Program-made: the position numbers and the translations under genes
NCBI GenBank assembly: GCA_021613535.1
Contig: CP075496.1
Coordinates: 124,001-188,000, forward strand
Reading direction: 5' to 3'
Length of the DNA: 64,000 nucleotides
DNA from: Adineta vaga
Taxonomy: Eukaryota; Animalia; Rotifera
Shown: positions 14,209 through 52,980 of the stretch, in pieces
How the letters are laid out: each line of letters starts with the position of its first letter
Numbering within the stretch: the first letter of the stretch is position 1
The notes under the pieces: generated by a model
What the model was told of the DNA's origin: nothing
What the model saw: only the letters and a program-made list of their open reading frames with translations
The model's database searches: none

Positions 14209-15331
14209 TTAGTTTTCCTCTTCTGAATAATTATCATTAAATGTTGATGGTTTTGTATCTTGATTTGAACTAATCAATACAATATCACTGATACTAGCAC
14301 GACTGGTTTGACGACTACAAGGAACATGTACCGATGGTATAAATTCACTGGATGATCCAACATTATCATTTGAATGATAGAAGGAAATAGCCGGATCTAT
14401 AACACGTAGAAAAGGTGTTTTATCCAATCCGTTTAAGATGTGTGTCTCATTAAGATCAAGACCCATTTCTTCCAAAGCTTGAATTACTCGTATAGCATTA
14501 GCATCAGTATTTGAAGTAACTAAGAAAGTGCGTATTCGCCATTTATTATCCTCGCCCAATGCTTGACGAACGTTTTGTAATTTGAGAGCAAATGCTTGTA
14601 TTGGACCTTTAGCTAACAAACTTTGCTCCATTTGATGATCACATTGTTCAAAGTTTATTGGTTGAGGTTCTTCCAAAAAGAGTACACCATCTCCATCAAA
14701 AACAATACGAACTTGATCTTTACTCCATGATGAACTGTTAAATGTAGTATCTGCGGTAGTGACAGGATTATCTGAATGTCTTCATAACAAGTGAATGAAA
14801 TAACAGATATAGATAATACCTTTGAATAAATTTATCAACTTACATAGTTATAGGTTGAGCAGGTATCGGCACAGATACCATAGTATATACCAAACCAGCT
14901 GCTATACCTTGTAATGAATTCGAACTTCCGCCAGTCAGTACTTCTCTAACTTGTTCTTCTTCTGTAGATAAGAAGAGATCACATTCCCAAGATGGAAGGT
15001 ATTTTGTAACTTCTTCACCACATGTGAATGACGTTCGTGTAATCGAAAGTTTGTAATAATTGATAGAATTGATAATACGTTTTACTGACCCACCGTCGTT
15101 ACGTGAAACAAGCACAATATCGATTATTGGATTGTCCACGACTTCATTCAATTTTAATAATGATTGTACAAGTGGAAATCCAACACCCGGTTGGAGAGGT
15201 TTGTTAACATTTTCACGTTGATGGTTTGTGTATGCTTCAACTCCATCACGTTTCCATATTTCATGCGATTCACTGCAATCGAAAAGTGCAGTAGATGCAA
15301 TACAAACGACCAGCTTAATTGAAGATTGCAT
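14209..15331 (-). CDS. 5'-nucleotidase family protein (PF06189/cN-I-like HAD), 2 exons, 352 aa
   Basis: IASTALFD, PGVGFPLVQSLL, VLVSRN, QVRIVFDGDGVLF, GPIQAFALKL and IRTFLVT. A GT-AG intron at 14843-14780 joins the two ORFs in frame. Confidence 0.85.
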
Positions 15332-17439
15332 TCTAATTTCTATATCTTATTTTTCTAGAATGAACGAAATAACTTGTCACAGGAAATCTTAGTAGTCTAA
15401 CATTAACACAGGGTTTTTTGATCACAGAGAATAGAGTGTTGAAGTAAACTTTGATTTGATATACTATACGGCAAACGCGTAAAATGCGCATCATGTTGTT
15501 GTTAGAATAGAAGAAAATCTATTAATGCAATGAAAATGTTTCAACAAGATTTCTTTCCTTTTCTAACATATTGCGACAATGTAAAGTTCCGTCCACAGTT
15601 ACACATCCGAACACGTAACAAAAAACAGACTTTTTACGCGTAAAATATTTCTATTTTTTGCCTTCAGAGAAGGTTTTATTAAAAAACCATTTGCATTTCA
15701 ATTTATTCTTTCAAACTTGTTTACTAGAAAAAATTTCCCAATATAGTAGAGTATGCGCTCACTTCCTTTATTTCCTTTTCCGTCTATACTAATAGGAAAT
15801 AAGAAAATCAGTAAAATTTATTTGTTATTCCTTGTCTGACATACTACGTGCGAGAAATGTAGACATCGCGTCAATTTCCGTAGCAGTTGTCACCGAAGTC
15901 AATTAAGTTTCTCATTATCAAGGTATTCAGCCATGATAACTCATGATGTATACAAGTAATACTTATCGATATCTACGTGTTCTATGTCTAAAGGCATATT
16001 TTTTTAATCAAACCTAATGATTTTCGACAACTACAAACGCCTTTAAAAAAAACCAACATATATAATACTTCAATTATTTTTCATATATGCGTATTATATT
16101 TTTTCATTCGTCACCAATATCAAATAACGATGGGTCCTGAAGTAGACGATTATTAAATACACGAAAAGTTTATAAATACGAGTCTTAACAATTAATAATC
16201 AAAAGTTCATTTCTATATCTTTCTCCATCTTTTACCATCTATTCATTTTCATGTAGATTCACCTTAGTCTTTATTTACTTCCTCTGAAAAAAGTAAATTT
16301 TTGTCAAAAATTTTGAAATTGTGATAAATTCATAAGAAGGTAGTCCATCTTCAGATCTTTCAGAAATTATATGATTTTTTCTTAGCTCATTTGAATTTAA
16401 CTGGACTGAAATAGGTTTTTGAGTGAGCGGGGAGGCTTAATACAACGAAACTTAACACTAAAATGTATTGAAAAATGATGTTTTAATACATAAGAGAATA
16501 AAAACGAGCGAAATATTACATCATCTCTTGATTATTCTATGAATTGATTAGAAAGAAATGAAAATACATGATGTGTATTATCTTGAATATTTCGTCAAAA
16601 TCAGAAGAAAACAATCTGAGATACATTTATGATATGAAAGCGATAGATTTTAAGACCGAATTAGCCATCGCATGACTCAACTATACAACAAGCTTCATAT
16701 TCAAATAACTGCGAAAAAAGTTTAATTTCATTTGACAAATGCACTTTTACATGAATTAGATTTAATGAAAATAGAAAAACTAACAAATTGAAAAAATCTT
16801 CATATACCATCATCAGGATTATTTCCTCGACAGACTAATGTTACAATTGTTCAATTTTTCACATGAAAGTCTTTTATCCGTCATTGTCTACTTGAAAGGA
16901 GTTCATGACAGGGAACTCTAAGGGTCATATAGTACGGAATCTAGATCGACTGATCCAATCGAGAATAGAGAATATCAATTTGATATCAATTTTAATTAAC
17001 TATTTCTCTTTTTCGTGGATAAGAGTCTTACAAAAATAAATTTGTTTCCTTGTTTGTGAGTAATGTTATTTTTCACAAAGTGCATACATATTCATTTGAC
17101 ACGAACTTTTATGAAAAACATGCAACCGGTAACAAGGGTAACCAGTTAAAAATGTTCTCTATATAAAATATAAGAACTTCTTTTGATGTTCATTTATAAT
17201 TTATGATCATACTTTTTAAAAGTAGGTTAATTTTTAAAAGAATATTAAAAATAAATTAATTCATACTTCGAATAAAGATTCTCACGAGCAGAAAATTATT
17301 CATAATGGTTGATGTCCTCTAAATTAATTCATTTCATCAAAGAATATTCTGTACAAAGTATATTACTTTCTATTCTTTCATTTAAAAAAAAGTAACTATC
17401 CAAATCAATTCTAAATAAAACTCTTAGATTTTATACCAA

Positions 17440-25871: not shown

Positions 25872-28221
25872 ATGGGTTGCAAAGAATCAAAACCGAATGT
25901 TATTGAACCGGTCATAGCTCCGTTAAGCGTACTCAATCCCCTCTCATCGTATGAATTAACTTCGGAAGCCTATCATTCAACATCGGTCGATGTCGGTAGT
26001 GCTACAGCAGAAACATCGTGTAAACTGATTACTGTTATAATTCAACCATGACTGAATATACTCTGCTTTTCTAGATCTGATATCCGGCAGTGAAATACAG
26101 GACGATCGGGATTCATTAGGCCGGAAGCCTTTGAAGTATGATCAGAAAAATCACGAAGATTTTGTCGTAGTCTGGCTTGGCGATTATCTCATTCCAATGG
26201 CCGGAAAGTTGAATGTAGGCATCGAAGAACTACAACGTATCGTTAATCATGTGGAGCTGTTTAACAGGTCCGAACCTTGTCTCCAGTTCTTGAGAGATAA
26301 TGTTAACGAGGAGAAAATATTTCTCATTGTGTCTGGCGAGCTCGGCCAAGAATTTGTTCTGCTAGTTCAACATCTTCCCCAACTTGCAGCCATCTACTTC
26401 TTCTGTGAGAGAAGGGAACCATATGAGACATGGGCCAGGTCGTTATCCATAGTACGAGGCGTTCACGACGATCTCGGACTTCTCTTTCAACATCTCTACA
26501 AAGACATGAACCTTTTGTCCAATAACTATCTAGACATTCAAGTCACTAGTTGCAACCTTGGAGCAAATGAAGGTCTAAACCGGCAAGATCCATCGTTTAT
26601 GTATGCTCAGCTACTGAAAGAAATTCTGCTCGACTTCCCAGCGATGGAAGAAAAGTACAGCAGGGAGGTAATGATCGCTTTCTGCAGAGAACAGTATCGA
26701 GACAACGCAAGTAAACTGCGCATTATCGATCTGTTTACAGCTAACTACGTCAAACGAGACGCCATTCTTTGGTATACAAAGGACGGTTTCCTCTTTCAAC
26801 TTTTGAACAAAGCCCTGCGATTGCAGGATGTCGATGTCTTGTTTAACATGCGATTTTATTTGAAGCATCTTCACCAGGAAATCGAGCGACAGCACAAACA
26901 GTGGCTCTTACTTCCTGCCAGTAAAACAACCACAAAGTTGGTGCTTTTTCGTGGCTTCAACGTTTCAGCAGAAGAATTTACTGCACTGAAGATTCAAAGA
27001 AGAAGTTTCCTCTCTGTCACAAGTTTTCTTTCTACTACTAGAGATAGAGATGTGGCTGCGATTTTCGCCGGACTGAGCACCACTGATCGAGCTGCTGTTC
27101 TTCTGGAAATTGAGATCGACGTCAGAAACTGCACTACTCCATTTATCGACATCACTGGACAGAGCCAGTTCGAGGATGAGAGAGAAACACTGTTTACTAT
27201 GGGTGCTATTTTCAGGATCCAGGCGATCCAGCAAGATAGCCACGGTTTGTGGAATGTAAAACTGAAATTGACTGGTGAAGAAGATGTGGAGCTCCGAGCT
27301 CTAACTGAACATATCAGAAAAGATGACAAAGAAGGCAACGTCATCGATCGCTTGGCAGCGTTGACGTTCAAAATGGGGAAGTATGAACAATCCGAGCGAT
27401 TTAGCCTGGTAATGCTTCGAGGTGTGGAGATGCTAGGAAATATAAAAGTGATTACTCATGCGCACAATAGCCTTGGCGTTATTTACGTTAAAACTAGACG
27501 ACATCAAAAGGCAATTTTTCATTTTAAGGCAGCACTCGCAGTTGCTTCAAAGCATAGATCTCCATATGACTGTCAGATTTCAACAATACTCACTAATCTG
27601 GGAATGGCCTATCACAAGCTAAAAGACTATGATAAAGCTTCATCGTGCTACAAAGAAAGTTTAACAATGGACTTAGCTGCGCCGACGCCAAATTACATAA
27701 GTATTGCACGAACCTACAACAATCTTGGGGGCCTGTTTGGTGAGCAACGGCGTATTGAGAATGCTATTCCAATGATTGAAAAGGCGCTGCAAATTCATCA
27801 AGAAGTGCTTCCTGCGAACCACCCATCTGTAGCAACTGGCTATTTTAACTTAGGGGCTCTCCACGGACAGAAAGCCGCTTATGAGCAGGCACTCACTTGT
27901 TATAACATAGCACTGTTTATGCAGCTGGCTGCCTTGCCATCAGATCACCCTGAACTAGCTAGAACTTATTTCGCAATGGCGAGAACGTTGGAGATTCAAG
28001 GTAAATATCGAGAAGCATTGGAGAACATGCAACTGGCACTCAACATCACCGAGACAAACCTCCCGCTTGATCATCCAGACTGCATTTATATGAATCAGTG
28101 GCTGATGATATTGTACGCCGAATGCATTGAACAAGCTGCAGGTCGTCCAAGTATAGATTCTCGAATAACTCGGGAGAACGAAGGTGATCAAGAGCCGGAA
28201 TACTTTCCAAATTTCTGTTAA
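25872..28221 (+). CDS. R-S-E clade ADP-ribosyltransferase + TPR protein with N-terminal MGCxxS acylation motif, 2 exons
   Basis: Exon 25872-26019 (MGCKESK...), intron 26020-26074 (phase 1). Then a receiver-like alpha/beta domain, AILWYT...LNKALR, LFRG, SFLSTT, QFEDERETLF, and kinesin-light-chain-type TPRs (LPANHPSVA). Confidence 0.88.
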
Positions 28222-29040: not shown

Positions 29041-31201
29041 ATATTATAATATTATCTGTCGATGATAAGTCTTCAAATTTCTTATTGTTACGAAGTTAAA
29101 GAATTGTGTCAATAGCGATAATACACAGAGTTTACGAGCAATTATTAATTTTTTTAAATATTTTAATGATGTGGATGTATGTATAGATTATATTACCGAT
29201 ATAGAATGTGAGTTAGTTGTTCTCATCATCTATGATCATCCAAGTCATAAGAATTAATCAAATTAATACACCATATACCCCAGTTAACGGCAATATATTT
29301 ATGTGTGCCATAACAATGTTGATATCATTCGGTTCCAGAATTTTAAAAAGGTATTGTTGAACTCATTTAGTATCTATTTATTTTATTGACAAGAAAATAA
29401 AATGAGCACTCATAATTTTGCTTTTTTGCTAGATCAAACCCATCGTCACTGATTTTGGCACTTTAATTCAAAAAATCAATATGGATCAAAATGAAAGACA
29501 AAGCTCGGTCGATAGAGAAGCACCACTAAGAATTAACACATGTAATCCTAATGATCAGAATGAAGATGTATTAACAGAAAATGGGAATTTTATGTGGTTT
29601 CAGCTATATTTATTGATGTAATCATGCGCATGGAACGACCTTCGTCACCCTCAAAGATTGTTGAAAAATGTGCTAAATATCATAATATTAGTTTATCAGA
29701 TGCCGCCGATATAGTCATAGGAAATGCAATTCATATGGATCGTCAAATTATTGGTAAATTAGTAGAATTCATAAAACCAGAGTACGCTGATAACAAAATA
29801 CAGTTAGAGATAATCAATGATTTCTCAACAACATTTCATGACGCATTAAGGTGGTATGCAAGTGGAACATTTGTTCATCAAATTTTGAATAAAGCACTAC
29901 GTGAACAAAACATCGATATAATAATTTTATTTCGTCCTTTTATTAAATTTTTACATTCCAATTTAGAAAAGAATCGAAAGAACATTTTGGAATCTAGTAT
30001 GCGATTGTACCGTGGGCAAGCTATGTCAACTAAAGAATTAAACTTTTTGAAGAAAAGGAAAATTTTATCAATGAATTCATATTTATCTACATCAAGAAAT
30101 AAAGATGTTGCATTAGCTTTTGCTCGAAGTATACCTGTATCTAAACAATTACAAGCCGTTCTATTCGAAATTTATATTGAAAATACGAAACAATATGACA
30201 CAAAAGCTTTTGCTGATATATCAAATTTAAGTCAATTCAGAGAAGAAAGTGAGATTCTATTTGATTTAGGTACTATATTCGAAATCAATGATATTGAATA
30301 CAATCATTACGAAAATATTTGGAATATAAAATTGAAATTACTTGGTCAAAATGATGATAAATTACGAGATGTTTATAACTCAGTGAAGAATATTTTTCAA
30401 AAAGCTGTAACATTTCATTCATTAGGTGCTTTCTTATATATTAAGGGTGAATACGACAAAGCCGAAAAATATAGCTTAGAATATTTGAGTACATTTGATG
30501 AAACGACGAAGTATGAGAGTGCAGGAATTTTACATAATCTAGGAGCTATAACTAGTGCGAAGGGTGATTACGACAAAGCATTACATTATTATCAGCTATC
30601 CATCGATTATGAATTGATATCGAACTCTATTGATAATGCTAGTCTGGCTGAAACATATTCTGGCATTGGTTCAATTTGTTCTATTCAGGGTAAATATAAA
30701 TCTGCGGAGGAATTTTTTTCGAAAGCAATCGATTTAAAATTATAAGCGGTTGGACCAAATGATTTAACACTAGCGCATATCTATTTTCTCTTTGCACAAA
30801 ATTATTTGCAACAAAATAATCATGAGTTAGCAAGAGAATATTATGATAAATGCTTCTATATACGTAAATCTCAACTGCCAAAAGATCATTATCTACTAGC
30901 AGATGTAGAAATAGGTATCGGTCTTATTTATTACAAGCAAGACAAACTGAACGAAGCTTTGAAACTTTGCATGAACGGATTGAGAATAAAACAACAGTTG
31001 TTACCAACAGACCATCCTGATTTTATTACAAATCACTCAAATATTGGTCATATTTTCCTAGCACTTCAAAACTATGAATTAGCTTTTAGACATTATACAG
31101 AAGCGTACCGAATCTTAAAACAACAATCGGCACCAACGCATCATCTATTAGTTGCACTCGAAGAAAATATCAACTATGTGCAGCAACAGTTATATTCTTG
31201 A
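29041..31201 (+). pseudogene. Second ADP-ribosyltransferase-TPR paralog with premature stop
   Basis: ALRWY...LNKALR, LYRGQ, SYLSTS, QFREESEILF and TPRs. In-frame TAA at 30743-30745 lies between two same-frame ORFs. There is an apparent frameshift in the 5' receiver-like exon (~29250). The start was not located. Confidence 0.8.
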
Positions 31202-31421: not shown

Positions 31422-33788
31422 TCATTCATCGTGCTCGCATTGAGTGGAACTATGGAAAAGTTTCGTTTGACTAGACGCGCTAGCTATCAGAAACTCTTTG
31501 TATTCATGACGTTGTGAAACAAGGAATTGTCGAAATAGATGATTCCGTATGAGTATATTAATTGCCATGAGTGATAACATTGGTGGTAACATCATAAAAG
31601 ATATAGTCAATGCTTGAAATCGCAGGTTCAAGGTCATTGGCGTTACAATTGTGACAGGACGAATAAATGGCAACCAGAAACAATGAAAGCTTTGACTCAA
31701 ATGGAATAGAATCGCATTTATATTAAATAGGAAAATGATGTAGAAACTAAGATAATATAATGATGCTGATGGAGATATGATTACAGATTCCATATCTTTG
31801 TTAAATGATGATAGTAAGAACTGAGACAGACAGATGGTAACATTTTTTAGACTAAATACAAGCCATATTGTCAAAGCAATAAGTCCAGTGACAAGAAATG
31901 AGCCAAAAATACAAATACCAATCATAAGAATATAAGCATCATGAGCAGAATTAAAGAGCGTGAGCTGCCATCGCCATTCATCAGTAGGTCGGTACATATT
32001 GGCAAAGATGACTAATAGTAAGATCATCATCAACAACCACCATATACTGATGATGGTCAATGCAAATATAAAAAAAGTTCGGTGTACACGTTGAATGTAA
32101 GTTGGTACATATTTGTATTCGCTAATGCTTCTCATTGAACGATGATCCAATAATAATCGTCTCCATCCGTTTGTCCATGCATATAAAACAGATCTTGGTA
32201 ATAATGCATACAGATCAAGAAAAGTTGATCGATGAAAAACGATGCATATTGTCAGAACACCAAAAATGGCAATGAAAAAACTAAAGAGAAAATTTCTTGT
32301 CATGATATGTGCGATGCGATGCGCTTTGGATACTTCAATGAGTGTAGAGAGTGCGTCAATGTTACTATTGAGTACGGTTATATTAGCAGTTGTTTCTATG
32401 GCATCAGAAAATAGTGAATCGTAATGTGACTTTAATGACGATTGATTCCATTGATTTAGCAGAGCTTTTACTAATGACTGCTTCTGTTTGTACAAATCAA
32501 AATATAAATGATACCATTTCGATGTCGATACGAGCGCAGAAATGATAGGAGAAATGAAAGATCCTTCACTTTGACGTGGTACTGGTACGCCCAAAAGAGC
32601 AGTAATAGTTGTAGCTATATCGACAGTGTCAAACGTGGAATAAACGGGTAATAAATTCTTCACAGAAGCCAAGTGAGAATCTTTCGCGTATACGACGAGA
32701 GGAACAATCTTTAAAACATGTGCATCACCGCCATGACCACCAGCATTGACATGTCCGTGATCACTTGTTATAATAAATACAGTGCGAGTCTGTGTCACTG
32801 CATCTAATGCAGTGATGGCATTGATACCTTCGCGAACGAACATTACCTTATCATCAATAGCTGATTGTGTCTGCGATGATTGAGCTCCAAATGAATGAGA
32901 TTCACCATCAATATCACCATAATATGATAAGAAAAAATCATAATCGAATTGAATAATATCAATCGATCCATTTGATCGGCGTACAACTGTTTGACTGTTA
33001 ATTGCAGCATGGAATCGTTGATTGTAAGCAATATCTTTATTACGATCACTATGACCATGTGTATAGAATGAATCGTCAAAATTGTTTGTTAATGTAGGAC
33101 TAGTACCATCTCCGTAGAATGGAGTCAGGTGACCATTCAATAGAATAGACCACCATGCATCACCACTAATTCCATTTTTCATTCCGACACTCGTGGATGA
33201 AGTAAAAATGGAATCTAATGTATAGGGTGTTAAATTATCATTGCCTATACGCCCATGTAATGATGGTCGAGCACCAGTGATGAGACTCTGCCAATTGGGA
33301 ACGGATACAGTTGGAAATTGAGTGGACATTTTTAATAATAATGAATCAGACGCAAACCATGTCGATGTTAACAATGCATTCAATGATGGATTCGTCTGAA
33401 TAGCATCAAAACGAAGACCATCCAAAATGAAATAGACTACTCGTGTGCGAATTTTATCATTCAAATTAAGACTCTGTGTACCGAAATATGTTTGAGTTGT
33501 ATTTCTATCGTTTAATGCATTGAGAAAGTCAATATTAAGATTAGGATCAGATCCAGAAGTGATCGCGTGTCGTTCTGATATACCATAAATAAATAACAGA
33601 AAGAAGAACAGAAATGTAACATACAATGTGTGACGTTGTTTTTCATGACGATGTAAAATCATTGATTCAACTGTATATGGTGGGCGACACAAACCTGCAG
33701 TATTCATTAGCGCTAACAACGCTATTGTTGATCCATCATAATGCATGCGAGTAATAGTATTCTTCTTCGATTCATTGTCTTTGGCCAT
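31422..33788 (-). CDS. Alkaline-phosphatase-superfamily membrane protein (GPI ethanolamine-phosphate-transferase / type I phosphodiesterase-like), intronless
   Basis: N-terminal TM, VVYFILDGLRFD, PTVSVPNW..LITG, DIDGESHSFG and ITSDHGH metal-site motifs, and several C-terminal TMs. Confidence 0.8.
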   Translation of the reverse strand: MAKDNESKKNTITRMHYDGSTIALLALMNTAGLCRPPYTVESMILHRHEKQRHTLYVTFLFFFLLFIYGISERHAITSGSDPNLNIDFLNALNDRNTTQTYFGTQSLNLNDKIRTRVVYFILDGLRFDAIQTNPSLNALLTSTWFASDSLLLKMSTQFPTVSVPNWQSLITGARPSLHGRIGNDNLTPYTLDSIFTSSTSVGMKNGISGDAWWSILLNGHLTPFYGDGTSPTLTNNFDDSFYTHGHSDRNKDIAYNQRFHAAINSQTVVRRSNGSIDIIQFDYDFFLSYYGDIDGESHSFGAQSSQTQSAIDDKVMFVREGINAITALDAVTQTRTVFIITSDHGHVNAGGHGGDAHVLKIVPLVVYAKDSHLASVKNLLPVYSTFDTVDIATTITALLGVPVPRQSEGSFISPIISALVSTSKWYHLYFDLYKQKQSLVKALLNQWNQSSLKSHYDSLFSDAIETTANITVLNSNIDALSTLIEVSKAHRIAHIMTRNFLFSFFIAIFGVLTICIVFHRSTFLDLYALLPRSVLYAWTNGWRRLLLDHRSMRSISEYKYVPTYIQRVHRTFFIFALTIISIWWLLMMILLLVIFANMYRPTDEWRWQLTLFNSAHDAYILMIGICIFGSFLVTGLIALTIWLVFSLKNVTICLSQFLLSSFNKDMESVIISPSASLYYLSFYIIFLFNINAILFHLSQSFHCFWLPFIRPVTIVTPMTLNLRFQALTISFMMLPPMLSLMAINILIRNHLFRQFLVSQRHEYKEFLIASASSQTKLFHSSTQCEHDE

Positions 33789-34169
33789 GAGTAAAGCACT
33801 GTTCTATCAATCAAAAGTGTTTGTCTAAAGAACGCAACAATCAAAGCAAATAAATCACCCTCAAGATGGAAACTTCTGAAGATACTGTTTGACGCTTTTT
33901 GTCCTACTAGCTTGGCGAATAATTCAAGAGAATGTCGTGTCGATGTATTTGTTTTACAAGTAACTGTTTTGTCAGCAAGTTAAGATAAGATAAACTACAT
34001 TCATCTATTATATACTTACAGATGCAGAATTTTTCAAGTAGTATCGTCCAATTAAACTATTATTATAGGATACATAACATCGTAAAAATATAAAGAATAA
34101 TTAAAATAAAAGGTTGTGAGTAAGATAGATATAAATACTCACATTCTTATTGTCAAATCTTTGTTGTAT

Positions 34170-39159: not shown

Positions 39160-39785
39160 TTAGAATATGCACCAAACATCGTAATTCATTGCCAAACCTT
39201 GAAGACAGAATGTCAATTGGTGGTAACAGTCATACTGAAAATAATGAAAAAACCGATGCCGAGAAAGGTCACCAATAGAAAAACATTCATCTATCGTCAG
39301 ATTTCGTAAAGATGGATGTATCCTTAAGCATTTATGTCGGCTACGTGACACTCCATATCTGAACCGCCAAAAATCAAAGCTGGACAAAGTACGTGCTAGT
39401 GCATCACGATACTAGTTTGTATAATAAAAAGTTACGCTTGTTGTAGGAAAACAGTTGGACGAAGACTGTGAACATACGCACGATTGAGGAAATCTGTGGT
39501 TAGATTGTGTTGTTCGTCGATCGACAATCGGTGATAAAGAGATTCTGAATGCCCAAATACATGTTTGAATGTATCTGTTCTGTTTGATAACTGTTCGAAT
39601 AGAACATTCAGGAGCGAACTGCCACATTTGGGTATCCGATTGTATAAAACCATGATGAATGGAGTCAAGTTCATTTTTTCCACGGTTGTATCTGTAGATG
39701 TAAAATGATAGTCCAAGATAGTAATAATTGCACATATTACTAGTATTCCATACGTAATTTTATTTTTAAGCCTTTCGATCACCAT
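39160..39785 (-). pseudogene. Heparan-sulfate/uronyl 2-O-sulfotransferase-like, disrupted
   Basis: Type II anchor plus VLYNRIPKCGSS (5'-PSB loop). RDALARTLSSFDFWR (3'-PB motif) lies after a stop and frame break at ~39432. Confidence 0.65.
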
Positions 39786-41526
39786 AGCTAGGCTATTTTC
39801 TGAAAATGATAAAAAGATATTACCGACAGATCGTAACGAAACTTACCCAGTTATAGTTATGCAGAAGCAGAATAGCGCGAAGGATTGATGTAGAGCACTG
39901 GAGCTCGACCAGTAACACCAACAAACAACTAACGGCTCTTCTTATGATTTTTTGGTAGTTATTTTTGAAAACTGAACTAATTTTAGCTGAAGTTTACGTT
40001 AAATTTTGTATGGTATTGTGGAAGATTTGTGTTTACTTTGAGACAGACTAAAATATTATCTTTTAGTTGTCTGTGGGCGGAACTTATAAGAGAAAATTTG
40101 CACTGGGATTAGTGTAAAATCATTTTCATACAATAACAGCTCAATTGTATTTATCAGAAATGGGCAAGTCAAGTCTTTTTTGACTCGACTCGACTTGACT
40201 TGGCTTATAAAAAGCCATGACTTACCCGTCTTTGATGTTTACATTAAGAAGGCAATGACTACAGTCACTACAGAAGCGAATGAACGAAATATTATCAAGT
40301 TGGTAGAAGAATAAATCATGAAAAGGTCGTATTTGGTCAAGTTTATCATAATTCACATTTCGTGTATAGGAGTAGCCATTGAGCTGTTATTTATGTCAAC
40401 AAATATCTGGAAACTAATGATTTGAAGAATCTTAGTGAAAAAAGCTGCACATTCTTAGAAAACATGTGTGCAATTGAATATGTTATTGGTTCGCGAAGTG
40501 CATTTATTCAGTTTGCTTGTTCTATCTCAGCATTATCGTCTTGCACTATCTAGTTATATGTTAGGCTCTTTAGACAATAATTCATAAGTACTGTCATTTA
40601 ACAATCAGGCTTTTAACATCCAATCTTGCCAGAATAACTCACCGATTCGTGAGATATCATAACAAAGAGTGTATTTTGTGCCAAATAACACAAGTAACAT
40701 ACAATAGCGAATAGTCAGGAATGACAGATCGAAGGAAAGCCGACTAATAACTGTAAGATAAGTTATTTGATGTATAGTCGGAGAACTTGCAAAGAGCATT
40801 TCAGAATCAGCTTTAAATCAGTCAAAGTTAAAGTGGATCGTCTCAAGGAGCGTTATTTATTATTTCTTTATAATATAATATACTTTTCTTTTACTTCTGC
40901 TCATATGCTACTATTTTTTATTCGAAACATTTTTTCTCTCTATAACTTCGATGCCATAATATGTAGGGTGACACTTACTGAACCAATATCATGACTTAAC
41001 ATAATATTGTTGTAAAATGGTTTCACGCCAGTCGTACTCTACTCCTACGCTTCGTAAGTTTTGAAATAATTTATTAAAAATAAATGGTCGAACTCTAACG
41101 AATATAACACATGACGGACATGTATTGTCCGCTTAGATAGGACATTAGATTAGTAGTGAAACATTGTTTAGTTGGAGAAAGTTGTACTGCGTTCGAAATT
41201 CTAACGAGTGTTCGATAATTTTTCGATATCGTCTAGTGAGATTGTAACATATGAAGTAGACTTCGAGTAGGAAATAAAAAAAAAGAGAGATTGTAATGAA
41301 AAGGTTCCATGTTTAGATTAAGTCGAATAGAATCACTATTTCCACTCACTACGAAAAACCAAAATGAATTTATTAATCAAGAATAAAAGAGAATATTAGA
41401 AAGATATCACGAGAAATAGCGTAAGTCATTGAGCGTACATAGTGCCATCATCTACAATCAAAGGATATCGATCGAAAGAACGTTTTTATAACGCAAGTTC
41501 AAGTCCAAATACTGAAATAATTCATT

Positions 41527-44500
41527 TCAATTACTAAATTTCAATGACGGACGAAGAAATGCATAATTCAAATAGTGCATCATATGATTTGTCAGCCAAA
41601 TGAGTACAACGGCGATTACCAACGGAACACTAGTATTGTAGATAGCCGAGTTGCAACGAAGAATGCCAGTTATAATTATATGTATCACATCAATTAGACG
41701 ACTTGTAACCACATAATGTTCACCATAAAATTCATCTGTGTAGATGTTGTAATGAAATATTGATGCTATACGTTTTATGAGACGAACAAAGAAATAACGT
41801 CTTTGAGCATTTTCATGTGTTCCACGTCGATCAGTAAAACATGATGCAACTACTCGACTGACAATAATGACACCACTGTATGTTAAAACGTTGTAAATAC
41901 CAACGAGTTTGGTTTGCGCGATTGAAACGATGGGAGAGTATATTACCGAATAATTATGGTAACCTCGCAAGCTGATAATGACTGTAAGGAGCTGACCATT
42001 AGTGAGTTGACCCGCTGTGATGTAACTCTCGTTATTACTTTCACTTTCATTAAACACACGAACCAGATGATTAGGACTCAATGTCAGCCGATGTCCGGAC
42101 TCGGTTTCAATAATAAGAAAGTGAGCTAAAATGTGACAATGAACGCGTTTTACAATGAATGCACCAATCAATAATACTAATCTCGAGCTACATCTTTGTC
42201 ATTAAAAACGACTTCCAAGCTTATTCTCGCCTGACTCATACGAATAAGAATTCGTAAGTGAAACATGTTACACTACTTAATTGCAGTTTGCTGGTTTTTA
42301 CAAGCACTTCTTGATGACAAGAATCATTTGATATTGATTCTTCCTTCGTTTTCGACACAATAACTGCGGTTCATGTAAACCACTTTCATCTCTTTCTATT
42401 CTCTTGCGTAAAAAAACGCTCATATGAAATAAAACAGTATATTTGATTATTCGTCGTCAGGTCCAGAAATAAAGGACACAATATTATCTGTTACCAAAAT
42501 GTCAGCGTTAATTATTATAATATTAGAGTTAGGGAAGATACTTTATCTTTACTTTATAAAGTCACCATAAAGATTACCTTTATTTTCATAGAATAAAGTA
42601 ACAGTCCTAATTGAACTAAAGAATACCCTGTGACCTTAAGTACTTTTTGTATATGGATATTCATAGATCCATGATAGCTATAGACTATTAACTCGTAAAG
42701 AGCCCTGCACGAGAGGCACACAGACAGCAAAGTTTGAGATGTATGTTCTATAGGTTTTTCTTCACAAGTTTGAACTAGATATCATCAAACGTGAGATCAA
42801 CTTAACGGTACAGATATGGAGTTATTCGAAGTAGACCTCTATTAGCAATATTCTAGCTACTCTATTAAGTGTTTTTCATCAGGGGATGCTTTAAATAAAA
42901 AGCTGTTTCCACTACTCGAAAAAAATTAGGAGTGAACAGATCTAAATCTTTTCGGCTGAACAAACATCCACAGAAAAGATCCATCCACACGTCGACGAAT
43001 ACGACCGTCGTAAACGGAAGTTTATTGTCGTATACTGCGCCGTATACGATTGTATACATAACATATACGGGACCTTTATCTCCGTGACCACGTACGGTGA
43101 CATACAATGATATTTACTATCGTTTTAGATTAATGATTTTCATACAAAACAATTCTTTTACAAAAAAGCTTTTATAAGAGTTTAACAACGGGCAGTCAGG
43201 GTCGAGGAACACTAGTATAATTTTAGTTTTTAAAGTTTAGTACTGAATACGTTGATTTTAGTTTAGAACGCAAATTCCACAATGAATTCGAATGAGTTTT
43301 ACGATTAATATAGTATGATGATTCTATACGATCCTATACGGCTGCTGTTTACGACCTGGGGTATTTAACCTGGGTTTATTTCATACAAAATATTTCGAAA
43401 TATCATTCTTGAAATTTCCTCCGTGAAATTGTAATCGCCAACAGACTTTTCTTAATCGCAGCACAAAATTAGTACCATAGTTTGTTTTACTTCGTGTCCA
43501 TTTATCTTAATAAACACTTCAAATAGCATTATACTCGAGGAATAATTGAATGATTCCTGTCAAGTGTTACGCTGCGGGTCAACTTAAGAATACGTTGTTG
43601 TCATTGGTAGGCACTGGTTCCAAGATAACAACGACTAGCTCATTGATCTCTGAAATTGGAACATTACATCGATTTTGTTGTTTCTAATAGTTACAGTGAA
43701 CCGATTTTTATATTGACCATGATAACCAGGTAATTTCTATTCCTATTAATAACGAGAGACGACTATAAGTATTATTTCTAATGATATAGAGACGTTTCTT
43801 TTCAGCTCTAACAGTGATGAATAACTGTTTTTTCAATTGATGTCAAAATAACTTAGTGTGTCCTTCGGATAATGATAATGTTTCATACAGGAGTATAATG
43901 TATCGGCAACAATATTTGTATCAGCATCTTGAGTTGAATTTATTGGACGAAAAGCTTTCTGTAATATTCATGTAGGAGAAAAACAGTTGTTCGTTACTGT
44001 TAGAGCTGAAAAGAAACGTCTCTATATCATTAGAAATAATACTTATAGTCGTCTCTCGTTATTAATAGGAATAGAAATTACCTGGTTATCATGGTCAATA
44101 TAAAAATCGGTTCAATGTAACTATTAGAAACAACAAAATCGATGTAATATTCCAATTTCAGAGATCAATGAGCTAGTCGTTGTTGTCTTGCAACCAGTGC
44201 CTACCAATGACAACAACGCATTCTTAAGTTGACCCTCATAGCGTAACACTTGACAGGAATCATTCAATTATTCCTCGAGTATAATGCTATCCGAAGTGTT
44301 TATTAAGACAAATGAACACGAAGTAAAACAAACTAAGGTACTATTTTTGTGTTGCAATTAGAAAGTCCCTAAACACGCTGTAAGTGGAGTATGAATTTAT
44401 TTCTAGATTGCAACGGTGTAGATATTAGAAAGTAGAAAGATTATTTCATTGCATTATGCCTATATTCACAAACATCGAAACTACTATACCTGTCTTATTT

Positions 44501-47470
44501 GGTTCATGATGAAGACGCACAAGCACTTCATCTTCCACTAATTTATCAGCGGTTGATTGACTATTACTAATAATTGTCTTCAGTCGATCACCCATTCGGA
44601 CGTATTTTATCTGCTTTTCTGTGCCATCAGCCATTAAGACATATTCGTCACCATGGAAACATGTGTAGCATACGTCCGTAACGATCGATGCACTACAGCA
44701 ATCTGAACTACTTGCGGACGCAATACCATCCTGTTTACAGCACACACCACTCTGGCAGATTACTCCAGCAGCATTGTCACAGCAGTCAGCAGTTGCTGAG
44801 CATGTTTTGCTCAGTGGCACACAACATTGAGCAGATTGACATGTCGTCGATCCATCACCATTGCCACAGCAGTCTGTCGCTGCTGAACATGTTTTGGTCA
44901 GTGGTGCACAACATTGAGTAGATTGACATGTCGCGGATCCATCACCATTGCCACAGCAGTCTGTAGCTGCTGAACATGTTTTGCTCAGTGGCACACAACA
45001 TTGAGTAGCATGACACGTCGTGGATCCATCACCATTGCCACAGCAGTCTGTCGCTGCTGAACATGTTTTGGTCAGTGGTGCACAACATTGAGTAGATTGA
45101 CATGTAGCGGATCCAACAGCATTGCCACAACAGTCTGTAGCTGCTGAACATGTTTTGGTCAGTGGTGCACAACATTGAGTAGATTGACATGTAGCGGATC
45201 CAACAGCATTGCCACAACAGTCTGTCGCTGCTGAACATGTTTTGGTCAGTGGTGCACAACATTGAGTAGATTGACATGTAGCGGATCCAACAGCATTGCC
45301 ACAACAGTCTGTCGCTGCTGAACATGTTTTGGTCAGTGGTGCACAACATTGAGTAGATTGACATGTAGCGGATCCAACAGCATTGCCACAACAGTCTGTA
45401 GCTGCTGAACATGTTTTGGTCAGTGGTGCACAACATTGAGTAGATTGACATGTAGCGGATCCAACAGCATTGCCACAACAGTCTGTCGCTGCTGAACATG
45501 TTTTGGTCAGTGGTGCACAACATTGAGTAGATTGACATGTAGCGGATCCAACAGCATTGCCACAACAGTCTGTCGCTGCTGAACATGTTTTGGTCAGTGG
45601 TGCACAACATTGAGTAGATTGACATGTAGCGGATCCAACAGCATTGCCACAACAGTCTGTCGCTGCTGAACATGTTTTGGTCAGTGGTGCACAACATTGA
45701 GTAGATTGACATGTCGCGGATCCATCACCATTGCCACAGCATTGCCCAGTGCTTGTACAACTTGCTTGAATCGTCTGACAACCTGCAAAATTGATCGAAA
45801 GTGTACGTGAAATTGTTCACAACCATACAAAAATACAATAAAAGTCTTCCCATCCTTATTACCTGAAACATTCTGCAAGAATTCGACAGAATTTTAGAAG
45901 CGCTTCGTCATAGATTGTGGGTCTTTATCCTGTGAGACTATTCTAAAGACTGAATCGGGCTTTTTTCATAACAGTATGTTTGCAAAGTGACCTGCTTGGT
46001 TTTCGTCTTTCAGTTTGATATTGATTTCGTTAGTATTCATTTTATACAGTGGTGGTTATCTTCAAGATCGATGCGATGCATCAAAGGAGGCAATAAATTA
46101 CCATAATGAAAAATATGCATTCTCATTTTTAAGAAGGAAATCTTGGTGAAGTTAAGATTACTCGGGAAAACTTCTTTAATTAAATTCTTCGAGGTGTTTG
46201 ACCTTGGAGATATGCAGACAGTTATCTTCACTCTGTTATTTTTCATTGTGTACCTTATGTGAAACTCATACTCGAAGTGTAGCGAAGCACAGATATGCTA
46301 GTTGAACGTCTCGTTGCAGAAAACAAGCCCGTAAATCATTCGGGCGTTCAAACTTGCATCTTAAGAGTTATTAGCTACAGACGAGTCATTGAGTTGAATA
46401 CTACAGAAGTAGAACTGATCAGCATTAACTTTGAAAGATTCGAGGTCGTCGAAATGTTTCTAGTAATAGAATCTGATTGTTAGTCTCATTTGAACTTGTT
46501 TTCAAAAGCTTATTAGAAGTTTGTATATATATTACATAATAGTTTAGTGATCGAACTAGTATGATATCATACTCTAGGTTAACCTTATCTAACTTCGAAA
46601 ATTAACAGCATGTGCTGCATGCTGTAAAATCTGAAACGAAATGGAATGTTCGACGGTTAGTATTGTGATTGATTTATTTTTAGCGCGAACTATATTTTAT
46701 GTGTTCTATTCTACGACAATCTTCTCTACAATCTAAGGCGACTATCCGAAAAAGATAGTTTTTCTATCAATGTGTAGGTCAAACAGACACGGTGCTTAAC
46801 GATTACATACGAAAACATACAAACAGATATATGTCTAGAAAACGAGTTCATTTGTATTATGCACTCCGCTAGTTTACTTCACAAATAAATGTAGATTGTC
46901 TTCAGTATCTGCCTTCGTATTATGATTGTAAATCTTCATGTCATATATGGAGTAATAAGAAAATAGACAGAGGATAATACAGTCGTTTACGACAATGCAC
47001 GTTCATGAATACAAGCAGTCTCAAAACCGAGCCAAGTAATATCGTAAAACACGATCATTTACAGTCGGGTAGGAAATCTGTCGTTTTAGTCCTGTATTAG
47101 AAATACGCTTTACTGTTTCGAAACGTTCTGAATTCTTGGCGGCAAACAAATAATTGAGGAGCGTTTAATGACATCTAAGTGAAATCTCAGATAACTCTAT
47201 AAGCAAATCAGATACGAGGTCATCTCAGATCTGCACCTAACCGGTTGAATGTGAACTTATTATCCTATTAGCAGTGTATCTATTTTCGATTTCTTATCTC
47301 CCAGCACCAGCTGTAGTTAATCTGCTGTCACTAAGTTTATTGTTGCTAACTAAATATGGTCAAGATCAAATAAAAATACATACCTGTCGTTGTTGTCGTT
47401 GTTGTCGTTGTGGTCGTTGTGGTCGTTGTAGTCGTTGAGATCGTGTTCATGGTTGTTGTCGTCATTAGAA

Positions 47471-47501
<31 letters not shown>

Positions 47502-50500
47502 TACAGTTTTGGTTGTAGATGCTATGATCGTCGTTTGAACTAAAATAAGATACGTTATATAAGCGCGAACAAAAGACAAACTATAAATTTCATCGTACAC
47601 TAAAATCAAATAGCATACTAGAACATTTGTAAAAACAGTACATAATGTTCTGATAGTTACAGAACCTATTACCTATGAGGCGCATCTGAAGAATCAAAGA
47701 TAGAAAGTCAAGAAATAATTAATATGCATAAATTTATATCTGTTTATTCAACTATTCTGCTGAACTCTCAAGAATCAAAAGAAGTGTCATTCTTGATTTA
47801 CGAATTAAAGTAATTGTGAAAAATTTTCAAGTTTTACTGAATCTACTAGACTTTTAAAAACTAGTGCTATTATACACCGATTCTGATGACCACGTCTAAA
47901 AGATTCTGAAAAATATATGTGATATTGAATGAAAAATATGCGTTAATTCACGGTATTGAATTATGTACAGACAAGAATTGGCGTAAGCCCTTGTCTCAAT
48001 GCTAAATGTAACATTTATGTTTTATCGTCATTCGTTGGATAAGAGAAACGGTAGCGAGGGAACTTCCTAATTAACGATTTGTCGAAGATTCCAATAAATA
48101 TGGGTGACAGAAACTATAGATTAGACAACAACTACTATCGCAGTTTTAAAAAAAACGAAAGATGAGAGCACATCTTAACACGTGAAATCTGTTATTAACA
48201 TACTTTTCCAGACATTTTTCTCCATCAGAATCAAGCGAAAAGTAGCCAGCATTCTCGAGGGAAATTTTTCTACTAGACTTGTGCTCCAACATACTACGGC
48301 CCGGCGGGATTGTCCCGACCCCTATTTGTTACGAGCTTGATCCCGATCCGATCGGGGTTGGGATAAAAATGTTCGAGACCTAGTCAATCATTTCATATAT
48401 ACATGTAACGTTATACTTATTCAAAAGCTTTAATATAATCTTCAGTACAAATATAACTAGAAAACACCTCTACACGTGTCGAAAACAACTATATTTATAA
48501 GTGGTAAATAGTTAAAGTACAACATAGTCAGGTCTGATTACTCTTCGAGTTCATCTTCACTTAGTACAATATGATCGTCGTTGATTCGATGTTTTTTCAG
48601 TTTTGAATGAGTCTTCTGTTCACCGTCATGAACAAAAAACATACTTTCAATAGGTAACAAAGAAACTGAATATCGATGAAGAAAGGGTTTCTATTTCGGT
48701 GGTACTCACGTACGATGATGATAATGTGACGATTTTTGATGGAATTACGCCTTTATTTATTTCTTCCTCTTAAATCGCATCGTTCTGATACAAAACAAGC
48801 GTTTATATACTCGTCCATAAATTAGAACGCAAGAAAATATCATGTCAAAGTACATCAGAATGTATTGAAATAAGGACATAATGAGGATAATCCATTATAT
48901 GATAAGAATCGAAAGAACTAACATCATGCGTACAGCGCATGTAAGCGAGAGCGTCGCAGATATGATTTTATAATTAAATATGCTGTTCTCAGTCATTCGA
49001 TTTCTTTCATTTCTGCTCTTCTTTATATTCATTCGACATGTGTACGAAGAATAATTCTGATAGGTTAAAAAAAACGAGTTTAAACGGGACTGAGACTGGT
49101 TTTACACTAAGAAAACATGTTCCGGGTCGGAACAAAGTTTTTCGTCCGACCGAATTCAAAGTATATAGGTTTCTTTGTCATAATCAGCACAAAAAAATGT
49201 ATTCTCCTCGAAATCTTGTGCAACAAATATTTGATCCCTGTTTGTGTATGAGCTTGTCCGTGTATAGCATGAATAAAAGAAGTATATATGTATGTAAATG
49301 TTGTCTTGTTTTCTTTCCTTCTCTCTTCTAACTGCACAGACTATTAGTTTTAGATAATCCATCAATCTATAATGTAGGAAGATTACGATTTTTCGCAGGA
49401 AATGAAACAAATCATGTTTTATATTATACTGATTCTGTTGTAAGGGAGAACGAACAATGCAGATTCTTTTGTAATGGTAAATCAATGAAAAATTAGAAGA
49501 AAGATAGGACTAAAAAACATCTAGCAAAGCGATATTTTCCTCCTCTCAATATCTTAAAAATAAGCATTGTTTTATGTTTCTGTTCGTATGAATGCAAGAT
49601 AAACTTATCATTAAAGATAAAAAATATATCATCTGTGATCTTTCTCTTGTTCGACCTTGTGTATTACGAGAGAGCAAAAGCTTGAAATTTCTTAGACACC
49701 AATTTTGAGAGAGTATGTCGGAGTACAAATATAATAGAAAAAAATTTCTCACAAAAATCGGCTTGATATTCTCTTATATCAACAAATAAAAAAGTTTAAA
49801 AAGTGTCTCTGTAATAGATTTCACATTTTAATATTCATTCCCATCTATCCTTCATGGAGTTGTGAAAGTCGCAGATGATCTTTATACCTTTTTTGTTTAA
49901 AATTCTGATAAAAGCTTATGTCGCTTAATAAAATCGCAAAAAAACAGCCACGTCAATATTATGTTGAAGATAGAAAGTAAGTGAAAAGAAATGATTTCGT
50001 ACCTGGTTGAACCTGTCCAAGGGAACAGAAAGCTATTTCTGTCGTGATCGTCGATCCGTTAGCCAAAGTTAGCAGCATTGCTGTCTGTGAACGTATAATA
50101 GCAGTGACTTTTTCGAATGTTTCGTTGAACGTCTTTCGGCAGCTGTTAAGAAGACACGAAAGCCGAGGCTTGATGATAAATGCAATATACAGCAAATCAC
50201 CCGTTGTATTTGGATTCACTTTACATTGTTCGTTCGTAGATCTAAAAAGCGGAAAATACGGCGCTTTTAAGATTAAATAAACATACTGAGTTTCACGTCG
50301 TCGTTTGCCAGAGGCATTTGATCCTGTCGAAGTGAATACTGTCGTCACAACACTTATATCAATATTTGGATATTGACTCGTCAACTGCAAACTTAGATAA
50401 AAGTTATATTTTGTGAGAATTTGAAACACAAACCTGAGTAAGCAAGTTGTTAACGTTCGGAATTGCAGACTCGCCATCATTTTTAAAATTAGTACCATAC

Positions 50501-51064
50501 GAAACATCGTACGGTAACACGACTAGAAAGAAGTAAACAATCTACCAAATCAATCAATAGAAAAACAATAAACACATACATGAATTGGTATTGATACCAA
50601 AAGTACCATTTGTCGATAAATAAACTGGAATTAAACTTAACACCACTACAATTGCGACTAGACCAGGGATGCAAAGGAAGCAACACAGTAGTGCTAACTG
50701 CCAGCGATTCCTTTAAATAGGTAGAAATACTTTCAGTTATAAATGCATATCAAGCTTTAGATGTCTGCAATGTATTCAGTCTTACTAGATCTTTAAAAGG
50801 CATTGTCATAACTCCATCGATCGATACATCTCTCTAGGATAAACGTAGGGTATACGGAGATTATAGAACGCCCTGATTCAAAGGTCATTCTATATTTTCC
50901 AGACATCGTGCAAATGTGTTTGAGACCCTTCATACTCAATCGATTGATTCTAAGTTATTTGTTACTAAAAACTCTGCTCTATCTTACGAACTCATTGTTT
51001 ACTAAACAACTCGAGAAAAATGTTCTTACCTGATCCTTCTCACCAGCGTCTGTTTGGTGTTCAT
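41527..51064 (-). CDS. Signal-anchored mucin-stalk, poly-knottin, Hint/Hog autoprocessing protein (8 exons, 879 aa)
   Basis: Exons 51064-51030, 50710-50580, 50522-50434, 50384-50287, 50241-50003, 47539-47384, 45782-44490 and 42125-41527. All introns are GT-AG, phases are compatible and the total is 2640 nt. Hint motifs: CFHGDEYVLMADG..K.I..V..GD, LTLSPNHL and GIYNVLT.SG.IIV..VVASCF. Confidence 0.75.
43444..44367. mobile_element. Foldback element: ~390-bp inverted arms around a ~145-bp spacer, inside the Hint-splitting intron
   Basis: 43444-43833 is the reverse complement of 43978-44367 with only scattered mismatches. No clear target duplication. Confidence 0.85.
44740..45780 (-). repeat. 87-bp coding tandem repeat (29-aa cystine-knot unit), 12 copies
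   Basis: The GGATCC marker recurs every 87 bp (45718, 45631 ... 44935, with variants at 44848 and 44761). Unit: CAPLTKTCSAATDCCGNAVGSATCQSTQC. Confidence 0.95.
47384..47505 (-). repeat. ACN trinucleotide repeats encoding a Thr-rich mucin-like stalk
   Basis: (TAG)n, (GTT/GTC/GTG)n on the + strand, within a phase-1/phase-1 exon. Confidence 0.85.
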
Positions 51065-52980
51065 CGACAGCTTTTTGAATAGCAGAGATGGTAATTCAGA
51101 CAATTATTCAACAACAGATCAGTAAAAATGAAATGATTAATCTAAATATGAAAGAATTCTTCATGTTCAAAGAGAATATCTCAAAATATCCCTCGTTAGT
51201 ACGACATAGATGTAAATCTTTGTTTCAGTAAAAAGCCGAATCTACACGCACTTATACTGGTGATAAGATAAGGCTTACGACTTTTATTGTTAAAAGGCGC
51301 AGAAAAGAAAGTTTTATAAAGTATGTTCAAGATTTTATGAAAAAGCCTTGTATGACGCTTGATCCCAGGTTTCTAGGACAAATCACAGAAAACAGCTCTT
51401 GTGAAATATGAAAAAGCAAAATATTGATTCGCATCTGAAAACATAAAAGAAATGTAGTCTTAACCGTAGCAAAATATCAGAAAAAAGCCATTTGGTGAAT
51501 TTAGAAAATCGAGAAATGCAGTTCTATTGGGAGATTTATAATTATGAAAAGCCCTGCATTGTTTCTATTCTAAAACCTAACTTATTAGTCCCTTCCATTT
51601 ACTCCTTGTAAGACGCAACTATCCACGTATACTTGTGAAACTTACTAGAATTAGCAAAAACAAAATCATGGCTGCCCAACATTCCGAATGAACAGATCGA
51701 TATTCAATGAATGAGAGCGAAAATAAAACAAGTACTTAACCTAATCGATATTTAGGTCGAAATTGATTGAAAAAGCTAAAAGAGACGAATCAGAGGACAT
51801 TCTCAAAGTAATTAGCTTCTTAATATGAGGATGATCAGTCTGGCCGAATACTCCAGTTTCTTGTTTAAGGTATCGACACTATAGTACATCTGAACGAGAG
51901 AATATTTCCTATTCTCAAAAGTTACACATTTCTGCACAGCGTTGCCACCCGCTATCGAGTGCCAACAAATCCGGAATATACAAAAACATCATTTACGGCA
52001 CATACAAGTCACTACCACGAAATCCTCCAATGGCGCACCATTTATCTCCATTCCATTACACGCACCTCCTGGTTATTCCTGCCTATTTCGGAATTTGTTG
52101 CATTTGCTCAATAATGGAATGCTAGTTCTCAAAGGCGAAGTGTTTTATTGGATAGATTGACTATGTACGGATGGATGTGGCTCATTGATAACATGGTCGG
52201 ATGATGTCAATTTCAAATTCAGTAGATTATGGTGTCTTTTAACGGAGATGTGCAGTTCTGAATGTGCCCACCTATCGAACCTCCCGCACACCCTCACTTA
52301 CAACAATCTATAACATAGAGAAACCTGAAACTGGTACTGTTGTCATCCAAACACCATCTTATGAAGCAGTCTTATCCATTAGAGTATCTACGCACTTCTA
52401 TCTCGCAGCTAAGCATTGGCAAATGCAGTTATGACAGTATCGGAAGGAATAAACAGAAACTCCTGATGATTGCATATCTGTTTTCATGTTAATGCTTACA
52501 CAAATCTCAATAAATGAAGCAATTCCTGAATTGTCAGGAACTCCTAGGGATTTGATTGTATCATGATTTTTACTATATATCCTTATAGGATATGACTATA
52601 ATTAAGAATGTTTCTAAATTCTTCCACTAAAATAAACTTTTTAGTAGAAAGAACTGGCATTTAGCAGCATATCTAAAGCTTATATGTCGAAAATAACTGG
52701 AGACAAACATACTGTAATTACACAACGGCATCTTCAAAATATACAATATATTGTCAAAGAGAACAATTAAGAGAAAAACACTGTTACTTCGGCTAATATT
52801 CTCTTGGTTTTATATGACTGTAGTCTACATATCATATGTGTACCCTAGTGAGAAACTTCACGTAACAGAATGTATTGATATGCAGCAAGCGTATTTTTTT
52901 CCTTTTATAAAAATTTCCATTGATAAAACAGAGCCTTTTCAGTTGAGATATTGAGGAAGTAACTTTTTTTGAATTATTCT

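Follow-up and report, generated by a model that had tools for sequence, protein, structure and literature searches.

A predicted membrane-anchored protein of the rotifer Adineta vaga that joins tandem knottin-like units to a Hedgehog-type Hint/Hog domain

Hog domains placed behind lineage-specific secreted N-termini, some of them with Cys motifs or Thr stretches, have been described in nematodes, cnidarians and protists (PMC2362128), and Lophohog is found in molluscs and annelids (PMC9695228). Whether and why such non-Hedgehog Hogs attach sterols is an open question, and sterol transfer is unproven in the nematode hedgehog-related proteins (PMC2362128). In this study, we analysed a window of 64,000 nt from A. 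vaga, which contains on its minus strand a gene for an 879-aa protein. Judged by its predicted parts, this protein is a member of the Hedgehog-related (Hog) class, with a secretory targeting sequence, a non-Hedge N-terminus and a C-terminal Hog. With Hedgehog itself (Drosophila Hh, PDB 1AT0/6TYY; SHH) it shares the Hint fold sequence with C1, His72 and C143, followed by an SRR-like helix. It differs in lacking Hedge, the signalling domain, for which there was no Pfam match on the scanned exon frames or in the homologues P0001-P0003, and further in having a signal anchor instead of a signal peptide, His at D46, a degenerate HPR motif and a hydrophobic C-tail. Nematode Warthog, Groundhog and Quahog, as well as Lophohog, also carry the Hog behind a lineage-specific, Cys-containing extracellular N-terminus; in contrast to them, the rotifer protein has a type II anchor, a ferredoxin-like domain, a stalk and a tandem array, a comparison of layouts made outside any tree with named members. 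A Thr-rich stretch before the Hog is also present in choanoflagellate Hoglet and Xiphinema Thog, for which the relevant passages of PMC2362128 report no knottin array or membrane anchor.

The initial annotation knew of no description of this architecture, and our literature search, made largely in open-access papers, likewise found none: it returned no paper on a knottin-Hog or a bdelloid Hog, the word "rotifer" has 0 occurrences in the main text of PMC2362128, and passages of PMC3482391 name Adineta for Het-C only. Protist Hogs rich in Cys may be present among the supplementary sequences of PMC2362128. The layout of the 879-aa protein appears to be a new architecture within the known Hog class, and the gene is probably part of a bdelloid expansion for which no literature description was found.

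The eight-exon gene model

Assembly of the frame from the DNA gave eight exons. Their ends are AG/GT throughout and their phases fit, so that they join into one 879-aa frame with a stop; with the exon-2 donor at 50580 this reproduces the length given in the initial annotation. An alternative exon-2 donor would yield 870 aa; donor 50580 was chosen because the resulting protein aligns to the homologues P0002 and P0003 without gaps. The features, in window positions, are the following.

51030..51064, minus strand: exon 1 (putative), start codon and basic N-tail (aa 1-12), aligning to the N-termini of P0003 and P0022
50580..50710, minus strand: exon 2, signal anchor; hydrophobic window aa 14-49 (peak 2.98, about 50700-50614), conserved in P0002-P0005 and P0022
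50434..50522, minus strand: exon 3, start of the predicted ferredoxin-like (SEA-type) domain
50287..50384, minus strand: exon 4, N-domain continued, with KRRR (aa 112-115) at 50306-50295
50003..50241, minus strand: exon 5, C-terminal half of the N-domain, with four invariant Cys
47384..47539, minus strand: exon 6, Thr-rich stalk (37 Thr in 53 aa)
45782-44490, minus strand: exon 7, array and N-half of Hint
44740..45780, minus strand: twelve six-Cys knottin-like units (aa 251-597), linker-free
44668..44739, minus strand: unit 13, degenerate (aa 598-621), lacking both Cys II and Cys V
44490..44661, minus strand: Hint N-half, Cys624 (C1) at 44661-44659 and His674 (D46 position) at 44511-44509
42126..44489, minus strand: intron inside Hint (2364 nt), containing a foldback inverted repeat at 43453-44360
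42125-41527, minus strand: exon 8, Hint C-half through the stop
41839..42125, minus strand: Hint C-half, Ser697-x-x-His700 at 42078-42067 and Cys776 (C143 position) at 41841-41839
41527..41838, minus strand: sterol/adduct-recognition-like region, hydrophobic tail (aa 840-863, moderate peak of 1.88) and stop

All parts first proposed, from the basic tail and anchor through the domain, stalk, knottin-like units, Hint and SRR-like segment to the hydrophobic tail, are found in this order. The closest proteins come from Adineta ricciae (about 60-80% identity), and its orthologue P0001, with four units and Hint, is identical at 257/361 positions with no gap over the joint of exons 7 and 8. P0007 and P0015 diverge from the 879-aa protein at this joint, as they would if their models ran on into an intron common to all of them. 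No second copy of the gene was found by tblastn elsewhere in the 64,000-nt window, and metagenome scans gave no match.

The stalk-to-array joint (47384>45782) bears on the possibility of two separate genes, one for anchor, domain and stalk and another for the knottin-Hog, or of an unexpressed locus. The A. ricciae annotation does divide the orthologue into P0004 (N-half) and P0001 (C-half), and P0003 and P0005 are likewise annotated as N-half only. The accessions of P0004 and P0001 are neighbours, and the longest contig listed is of equal length for both (84961); their adjacency is taken from these two points. Their free ends resemble read-through of the intron-6 donor and acceptor of the 879-aa gene. 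Against a division stand the matching phase 1 of donor and acceptor, the conservation of both halves at 76-80% identity, and intron 6 itself, where only one of 10 open ATG-to-phase-1-donor pairs is a candidate for a signal exon, and a weak one. Moreover, the paralogue P0022 (near-copy P0155), whose N-domain is identical to ours at 87/185 positions, is a single gene model that unites anchor, N-domain, Thr stalk, another Cys repeat and Hint with a hydrophobic tail. We therefore regard two genes or a silent locus as very unlikely; as read from the DNA, the eight exons are predicted to form one spliced, conserved gene. It should be noted that all supporting gene models are predictions. The orthologue halves (P0001/P0002/P0004) and the paralogue (P0022/P0155) have the same layout and are labelled "Hint domain-containing protein"; compared with the 13 units of the 879-aa protein as assembled the orthologue has 4, while the paralogue, besides its other Cys repeat, lacks C143. 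Contigs over intron 6 match window positions 45685-47457 with 0 differences; they perhaps come from the same source and are hence not independent. Seven of nine read sets that may be RNA were aligned, four to 41300-51300 (at 85%) and three to 41400-47700 (at 80%); apart from Thr-repeat matches of unrelated records they covered no exon and crossed no splice joint, an outcome that counts neither for nor against the model.

Hint domain, self-cleavage and sterol recognition

The Hint profile search advised by the initial annotation was run on the end of exon 7, which matches Pfam Hint 10-64 with 26.7 bits (alone below the 29.7 cut-off), and on exon 8, which matches positions 64-188 with 64 bits, above it. 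The two halves adjoin at profile position 64, and P0001, gap-free across the intron, reaches 96.6 bits, in agreement with the proposal of a Hint split by a 2.36-kb intron. The catalytic set is present as C624 (C1), S697/H700 (T/S-x-x-H), H674 (base at 46) and C776 (C143). Thr at -1, Ser-x-x-His and His at D46 had been listed earlier as deviations from Hedgehog; the residues are as described, and deviations at these positions are common among Hog relatives.

Counts among relatives refer to 147 proteins covering nearly all of the Hint model, out of 171 collected and 167 matching it, a set of best P0001 matches and cluster members that is query-biased and includes near-duplicates. Cys1 is kept in 146/147 and His72 in all 147, C143 in 77/147. 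At the D46 position 123 proteins carry His and 16 Asp, and position 69 is Thr in 92 and Ser in 54. Since His46 and SxxH are this frequent, they can be considered ordinary outside classical Hedgehog; by eye, the Hedge-bearing P0133 has His at D46 as well. Position -1 is Gly in 45/147, and Thr is outside the eight commonest residues there. The best PDB match is 6TYY, the D303H/D46H variant of Hedgehog, which is active in vitro and tolerates a wider sterol range (PMC9163320).

With C1, H72 and C143 kept, the last of which Hedgehog processing needs (PMC12054796), self-cleavage of the Hint domain between Thr623 and Cys624 is probable. The opposite reading, in which Hint no longer cuts and the protein remains a loop anchored at both ends, could draw on the hydrophobic C-tail and on two residues that could slow the acyl shift, the Thr at -1, which is β-branched, and the Ser in place of Thr69. 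However, C1, His46, His72 and C143 are all retained, and the Hint core is identical to P0001 at 123/154 positions (80%) compared with 59/110 (54%) in the last repeats, which leaves an inactive Hint with only a slim chance.

The sterol-recognition region is present yet divergent and resembles an adduct-recognition-type region. In the first SRR helix, the columns of the Hedgehog His-Pro-Arg motif (named in PMC7906309) are occupied by Gln, Phe and Arg, so that Arg alone is retained; in the 147 relatives these columns hold His in 74 and Gln in 41, Pro in 107 and Arg in 115. In SHH, H374A blocks cholesterolysis (PMC7242414). Due to the degenerate recognition motif, the possible sterol anchor suggested by the initial annotation becomes uncertain, and we put attachment of a sterol adduct to the N-product at somewhat below an even chance.

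The extracellular part and its possible role

The N-domain spans about 140 aa and keeps K-R-R-R in P0002 and P0003 and K-K-R-R in P0022, while a Pfam scan of P0002/P0003 assigned it to no family. Structure prediction, as initially advised, was run on the paralogue P0003 and gave a ferredoxin-like β-α-β-β-α-β topology of low confidence (AlphaFold; mean pLDDT 49, pTM 0.39, core blocks 60-78, 7-row alignment), with the basic motif equivalent to KRRR between β2 and β3. Fold searches with this model returned ferredoxin-like matches over residues 55-192 (Z 8.7, near the common range; rmsd 2.4, 94 aligned), with a similar outcome in a further search, and no SEA chains among the 50 matches listed; Foldseek gave none at E < 0.001 for the N-domain model, and the Atlas listed SEA clusters as leads at 0.82-0.83. 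SEA surface proteins (MUC1, Notch S1 site, GPR126) would share with the 879-aa protein the ferredoxin-like fold and the β2-β3 cut site by an anchor or stalk, as predicted here, while the latter lacks a Pfam SEA match and the GSVVV motif, has four extra Cys and ends in a Hog, not in a protease or 7TM. Type II serine proteases are further SEA-domain surface proteins of this kind. Both the fold and the position of KRRR concern the proposed release of the chain. The β2-β3 loop is where cleavage of SEA domains takes place, with furin as the enzyme in Notch and GPR126, and the cut halves stay bound until force parts them (PMC6954182). The earlier proposal that a furin cut at KRRR, together with Hint cleavage, would free the array is therefore weakened, since KRRR falls inside the predicted domain; by this analogy the site is probably a nick, and furin alone would probably not release the array.

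Counting confirmed the reported twelve knottin-spaced units plus a degenerate one: eleven have 29 aa and the spacing C-x6-C-x5-CC-x8-C-x4-C, the 12th has x7, and the 13th has four Cys, whereas its equivalents in P0001 and P0007 have six. The missing Cys II and V are a knottin disulfide pair, a weak point as their joint loss would hit such a pair by chance in 3 of 15 pairs. Single Cys at both array ends fix the register of the units. The DNA has an 87-nt period (11.2 copies, 95% matches), and units 2-8 are identical in protein; their DNA is also the same, except that two of them carry a single silent change. The order C-C-CC-C-C with loop a of 6 and loop c of 0 is that of inhibitor cystine knots (calcins, spider toxins, conotoxin O framework), both loop lengths being common in knottins (PMC2238874). 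Profile matches went to knottin families only and were all sub-threshold, with Toxin_27 in 3/7 units (best E 0.051) and Toxin_12 in 1/7 (E 0.013, below cut-off); PDB matches were weak for the units (E 0.12-0.41) and for P0001 (E 0.046), and a single-sequence model of P0001 (pLDDT 38.7) gave only helix matches in a fold search. The initial assignment to inhibitor cystine knots thus stands for the spacing, with profile matches remaining below cut-off, and each unit would likely fold as a cystine knot (I-IV, II-V, III-VI).

In contrast to known inhibitor cystine knots, the rotifer array is an acidic, linker-free tandem of 12-13 units that lacks aromatics and release sites. Its 371 aa include 0 aromatics and 12 K/R against 19 D/E, with no dibasic site and no linker. 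Given this composition and the missing sites between units, a rigid rod at the surface or in the matrix is a better match than a toxin polyprotein, and we read the array as a rigid spacer or matrix rod that has expanded recently, not as a precursor of diversified toxins. A toxin polyprotein was rejected because dibasic sites and linkers are missing, and a granulin or metallothionein-type repeat because no Pfam match was obtained; chitin or cellulose binding would be unlikely for an array devoid of aromatics.

We propose a self-cleaved Hog precursor that would leave a membrane-tethered stalk and cystine-knot rod on the surface, most likely as coat structure or in adhesion, a reading to which we give about an even chance and whose structural role is drawn from composition and analogy. 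The hydrophobic stretch after the basic tail would act as an uncleaved type II anchor, the remainder passing into the secretory lumen, where a furin-type enzyme may nick KRRR in the β2-β3 loop, with the SEA-type halves bound until pulled apart. The Thr stalk would be O-glycosylated, and the knotted, linker-free units would form a stiff, protease-resistant rod. Hint would form a thioester at Cys624, aided by His700, His674 and Cys776, which could be resolved by a sterol (slightly less than an even chance), water or another nucleophile, e.g. a matrix protein; force or a protease acting at the nicked domain may shed the rod later. The best functional analogy is provided by nematode Hedgehog-related proteins, which are cuticle components (PMC10793445).

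A defence or ligand polymer had been considered initially. In such a reading, both cuts would yield a knottin chain, multivalent and tagged with a sterol, that has high avidity for a target (protease, channel, receptor) in microbes or a host. The weak matches all point to knottin toxin families, copy number varies (13 and 4 units), and an unrelated knottin-Hog cluster, P0018, resembles defence-peptide precursors in combining an identical prepro region with three knottin sequences. The repeat composition argues against a toxin-like polymer, however, with no aromatics, a net negative charge and no processing sites; units 2-8 are identical instead of diversified, and the other Cys repeat in the same slot of P0022 suggests that a Cys-rich spacer is needed and not a specific knot, so that we consider this role unlikely. 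Still less probable appears a signalling precursor, whose lipidated N-product would be a short-range ligand of a Patched-related receptor, a role that has been suggested for further Hedgehog-related proteins. A membrane tether combined with a sheddable domain is an arrangement like that of juxtacrine ligands, and the catalytic set of the Hog is intact, but the Hedge domain is missing, the sterol helix is degenerate, and a long homogeneous repeat would be unusual for a receptor ligand.

Relatives and other knottin-Hog proteins

A search of 50% clusters gave 853 matches at E ≤ 0.001, of which the 150 best were taken up. In a quick tree of 148 rows the 879-aa gene sits on a long branch, weakly (support 80) beside the knottin-Hogs P0085/P0089/P0096. 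In a more careful tree (LG+G4, 46 selected rows, P0006 and the SRR region added) it belongs to a clade of 17 rows (96/94), which also holds proteins of A. ricciae, A. steineri and Didymodactylos as well as 11 others. The AU test rejects only a grouping with P0018 (p 0.037). Horizontal gain of the knottin-Hog cassette, weakly favoured by the quick tree, was not recovered in the careful one and is not rejected for the three knottin-Hogs (p 0.184); separate Hog origins of the 879-aa gene and P0022, which the tree separates, are not established (p 0.13).

The search for further knottin and Hint architectures, also proposed initially, gave a loose knottin pattern in 26/154 proteins, and inspection by eye found a knottin-like unit directly before Hint in seven (P0001, P0007, P0018, P0028, P0085, P0089, P0096), two of them with weak Conotoxin matches (E 0.02, 0.046). 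In the P0018 cluster 5/10 members are full length, and it is these five that combine the identical prepro region with three different knottin sequences. It is conceivable, though we hold it to be improbable, that eukaryotes in general use Hog domains to attach lipids to cystine-knot effectors. Unrelated lineages would then have paired knottins with Hog independently (P0018 cluster, P0085/P0089/P0096, P0028), and the rotifer gene would build a force-releasable, sterol-anchored 12-valent chain. If so, Hog cholesterolysis would have been put to use repeatedly for defence or adhesion, outside its role in development. Knottins lipidated in this manner would show a new way of making multivalent mini-proteins that are anchored in membranes, and would supply natural Hog variants for bioconjugation. 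With its natural His general base, the 879-aa gene is a compact test case for Hog sterol chemistry. Its 17-row clade includes proteins with anchor, Thr stalk and Hog (P0151, P0066, P0102), an EGF-like domain with Hog (P0054) and long Cys arrays with Hog (P0016, P0156), pointing to a bdelloid family of membrane-anchored Hogs with interchangeable cargo: knottin-like units, other Cys repeats, EGF or bare Thr stalks.

Hog domains joined to knottin-like units and to other domains

In P0018 and P0163–P0171, protein records from JGI/ENA, a signal and pro region is followed by one knottin-like unit and then by Hog, and these proteins look like a defence-peptide precursor carrying a built-in lipidation domain. 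Within the P0018 cluster, the prepro region is identical in the five full-length members, while their knottin sequences are of three kinds. Further knottin-like plus Hog proteins (P0085, P0089, P0096 and P0028) branch elsewhere in the Hint tree. Among the proteins P0017, P0088, P0093, P0010, P0012 and P0054, Hog is fused to a chitin-binding hevein domain, to an AIG1 GTPase (P0088 also with MACPF) or to FG-GAP, an anchor and EGF, and a tandem double Hog is present as well.

Repeats and contig matches in the introns of the gene with knottin-like units and Hog

Three introns of the main gene contain the following features:

43453–44360, intron 7: foldback inverted repeat with arms of 260 nt (97%) and 121 nt (93%)
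46942–47294, intron 6: exact match to a contig of sequencing run X12, depth 2
48737–48955, intron 5: fragment of a repeat to which many short contigs of RNA-like runs give deep coverage

The foldback repeat is likely a non-autonomous transposon. The X12 contig displays a loose, adaptor-like end on the 5' side of the + strand, and the contig itself may be either antisense RNA or DNA carry-over.

Neighbouring genes and transposon-like frames

The following further frames were found in the window:

4694–5395, −: Helitron-like helicase fragment
8713–10194, +: PiggyBac-like transposase frame with in-frame stops
14209–15346, −: 5'-nucleotidase (PF06189, 148 bits)
26056–28221, +: TPR protein, weak ADP-ribosyltransferase match (E 2.8e-4)
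29564–31201, +: TPR protein, similar by eye to that at 26056–28221
31422–33803, −: 793-aa open frame, Phosphodiest domain (71 bits)
39364–39785, −: neighbour gene, 72% identity to the N-terminal 151 aa of P0004

The neighbour gene is presumably sulfotransferase-like; a Pfam search of its exon returned no match. In P0004, an A. ricciae gene model, its homologue is joined to the N-terminal half of the main gene, which suggests that A. ricciae and the window share this gene neighbourhood in a different order. The second TPR frame is interrupted by an in-frame stop at 30743–30745, and the Phosphodiest frame additionally contains several hydrophobic segments. For the 5'-nucleotidase gene, a foreign origin is possible.
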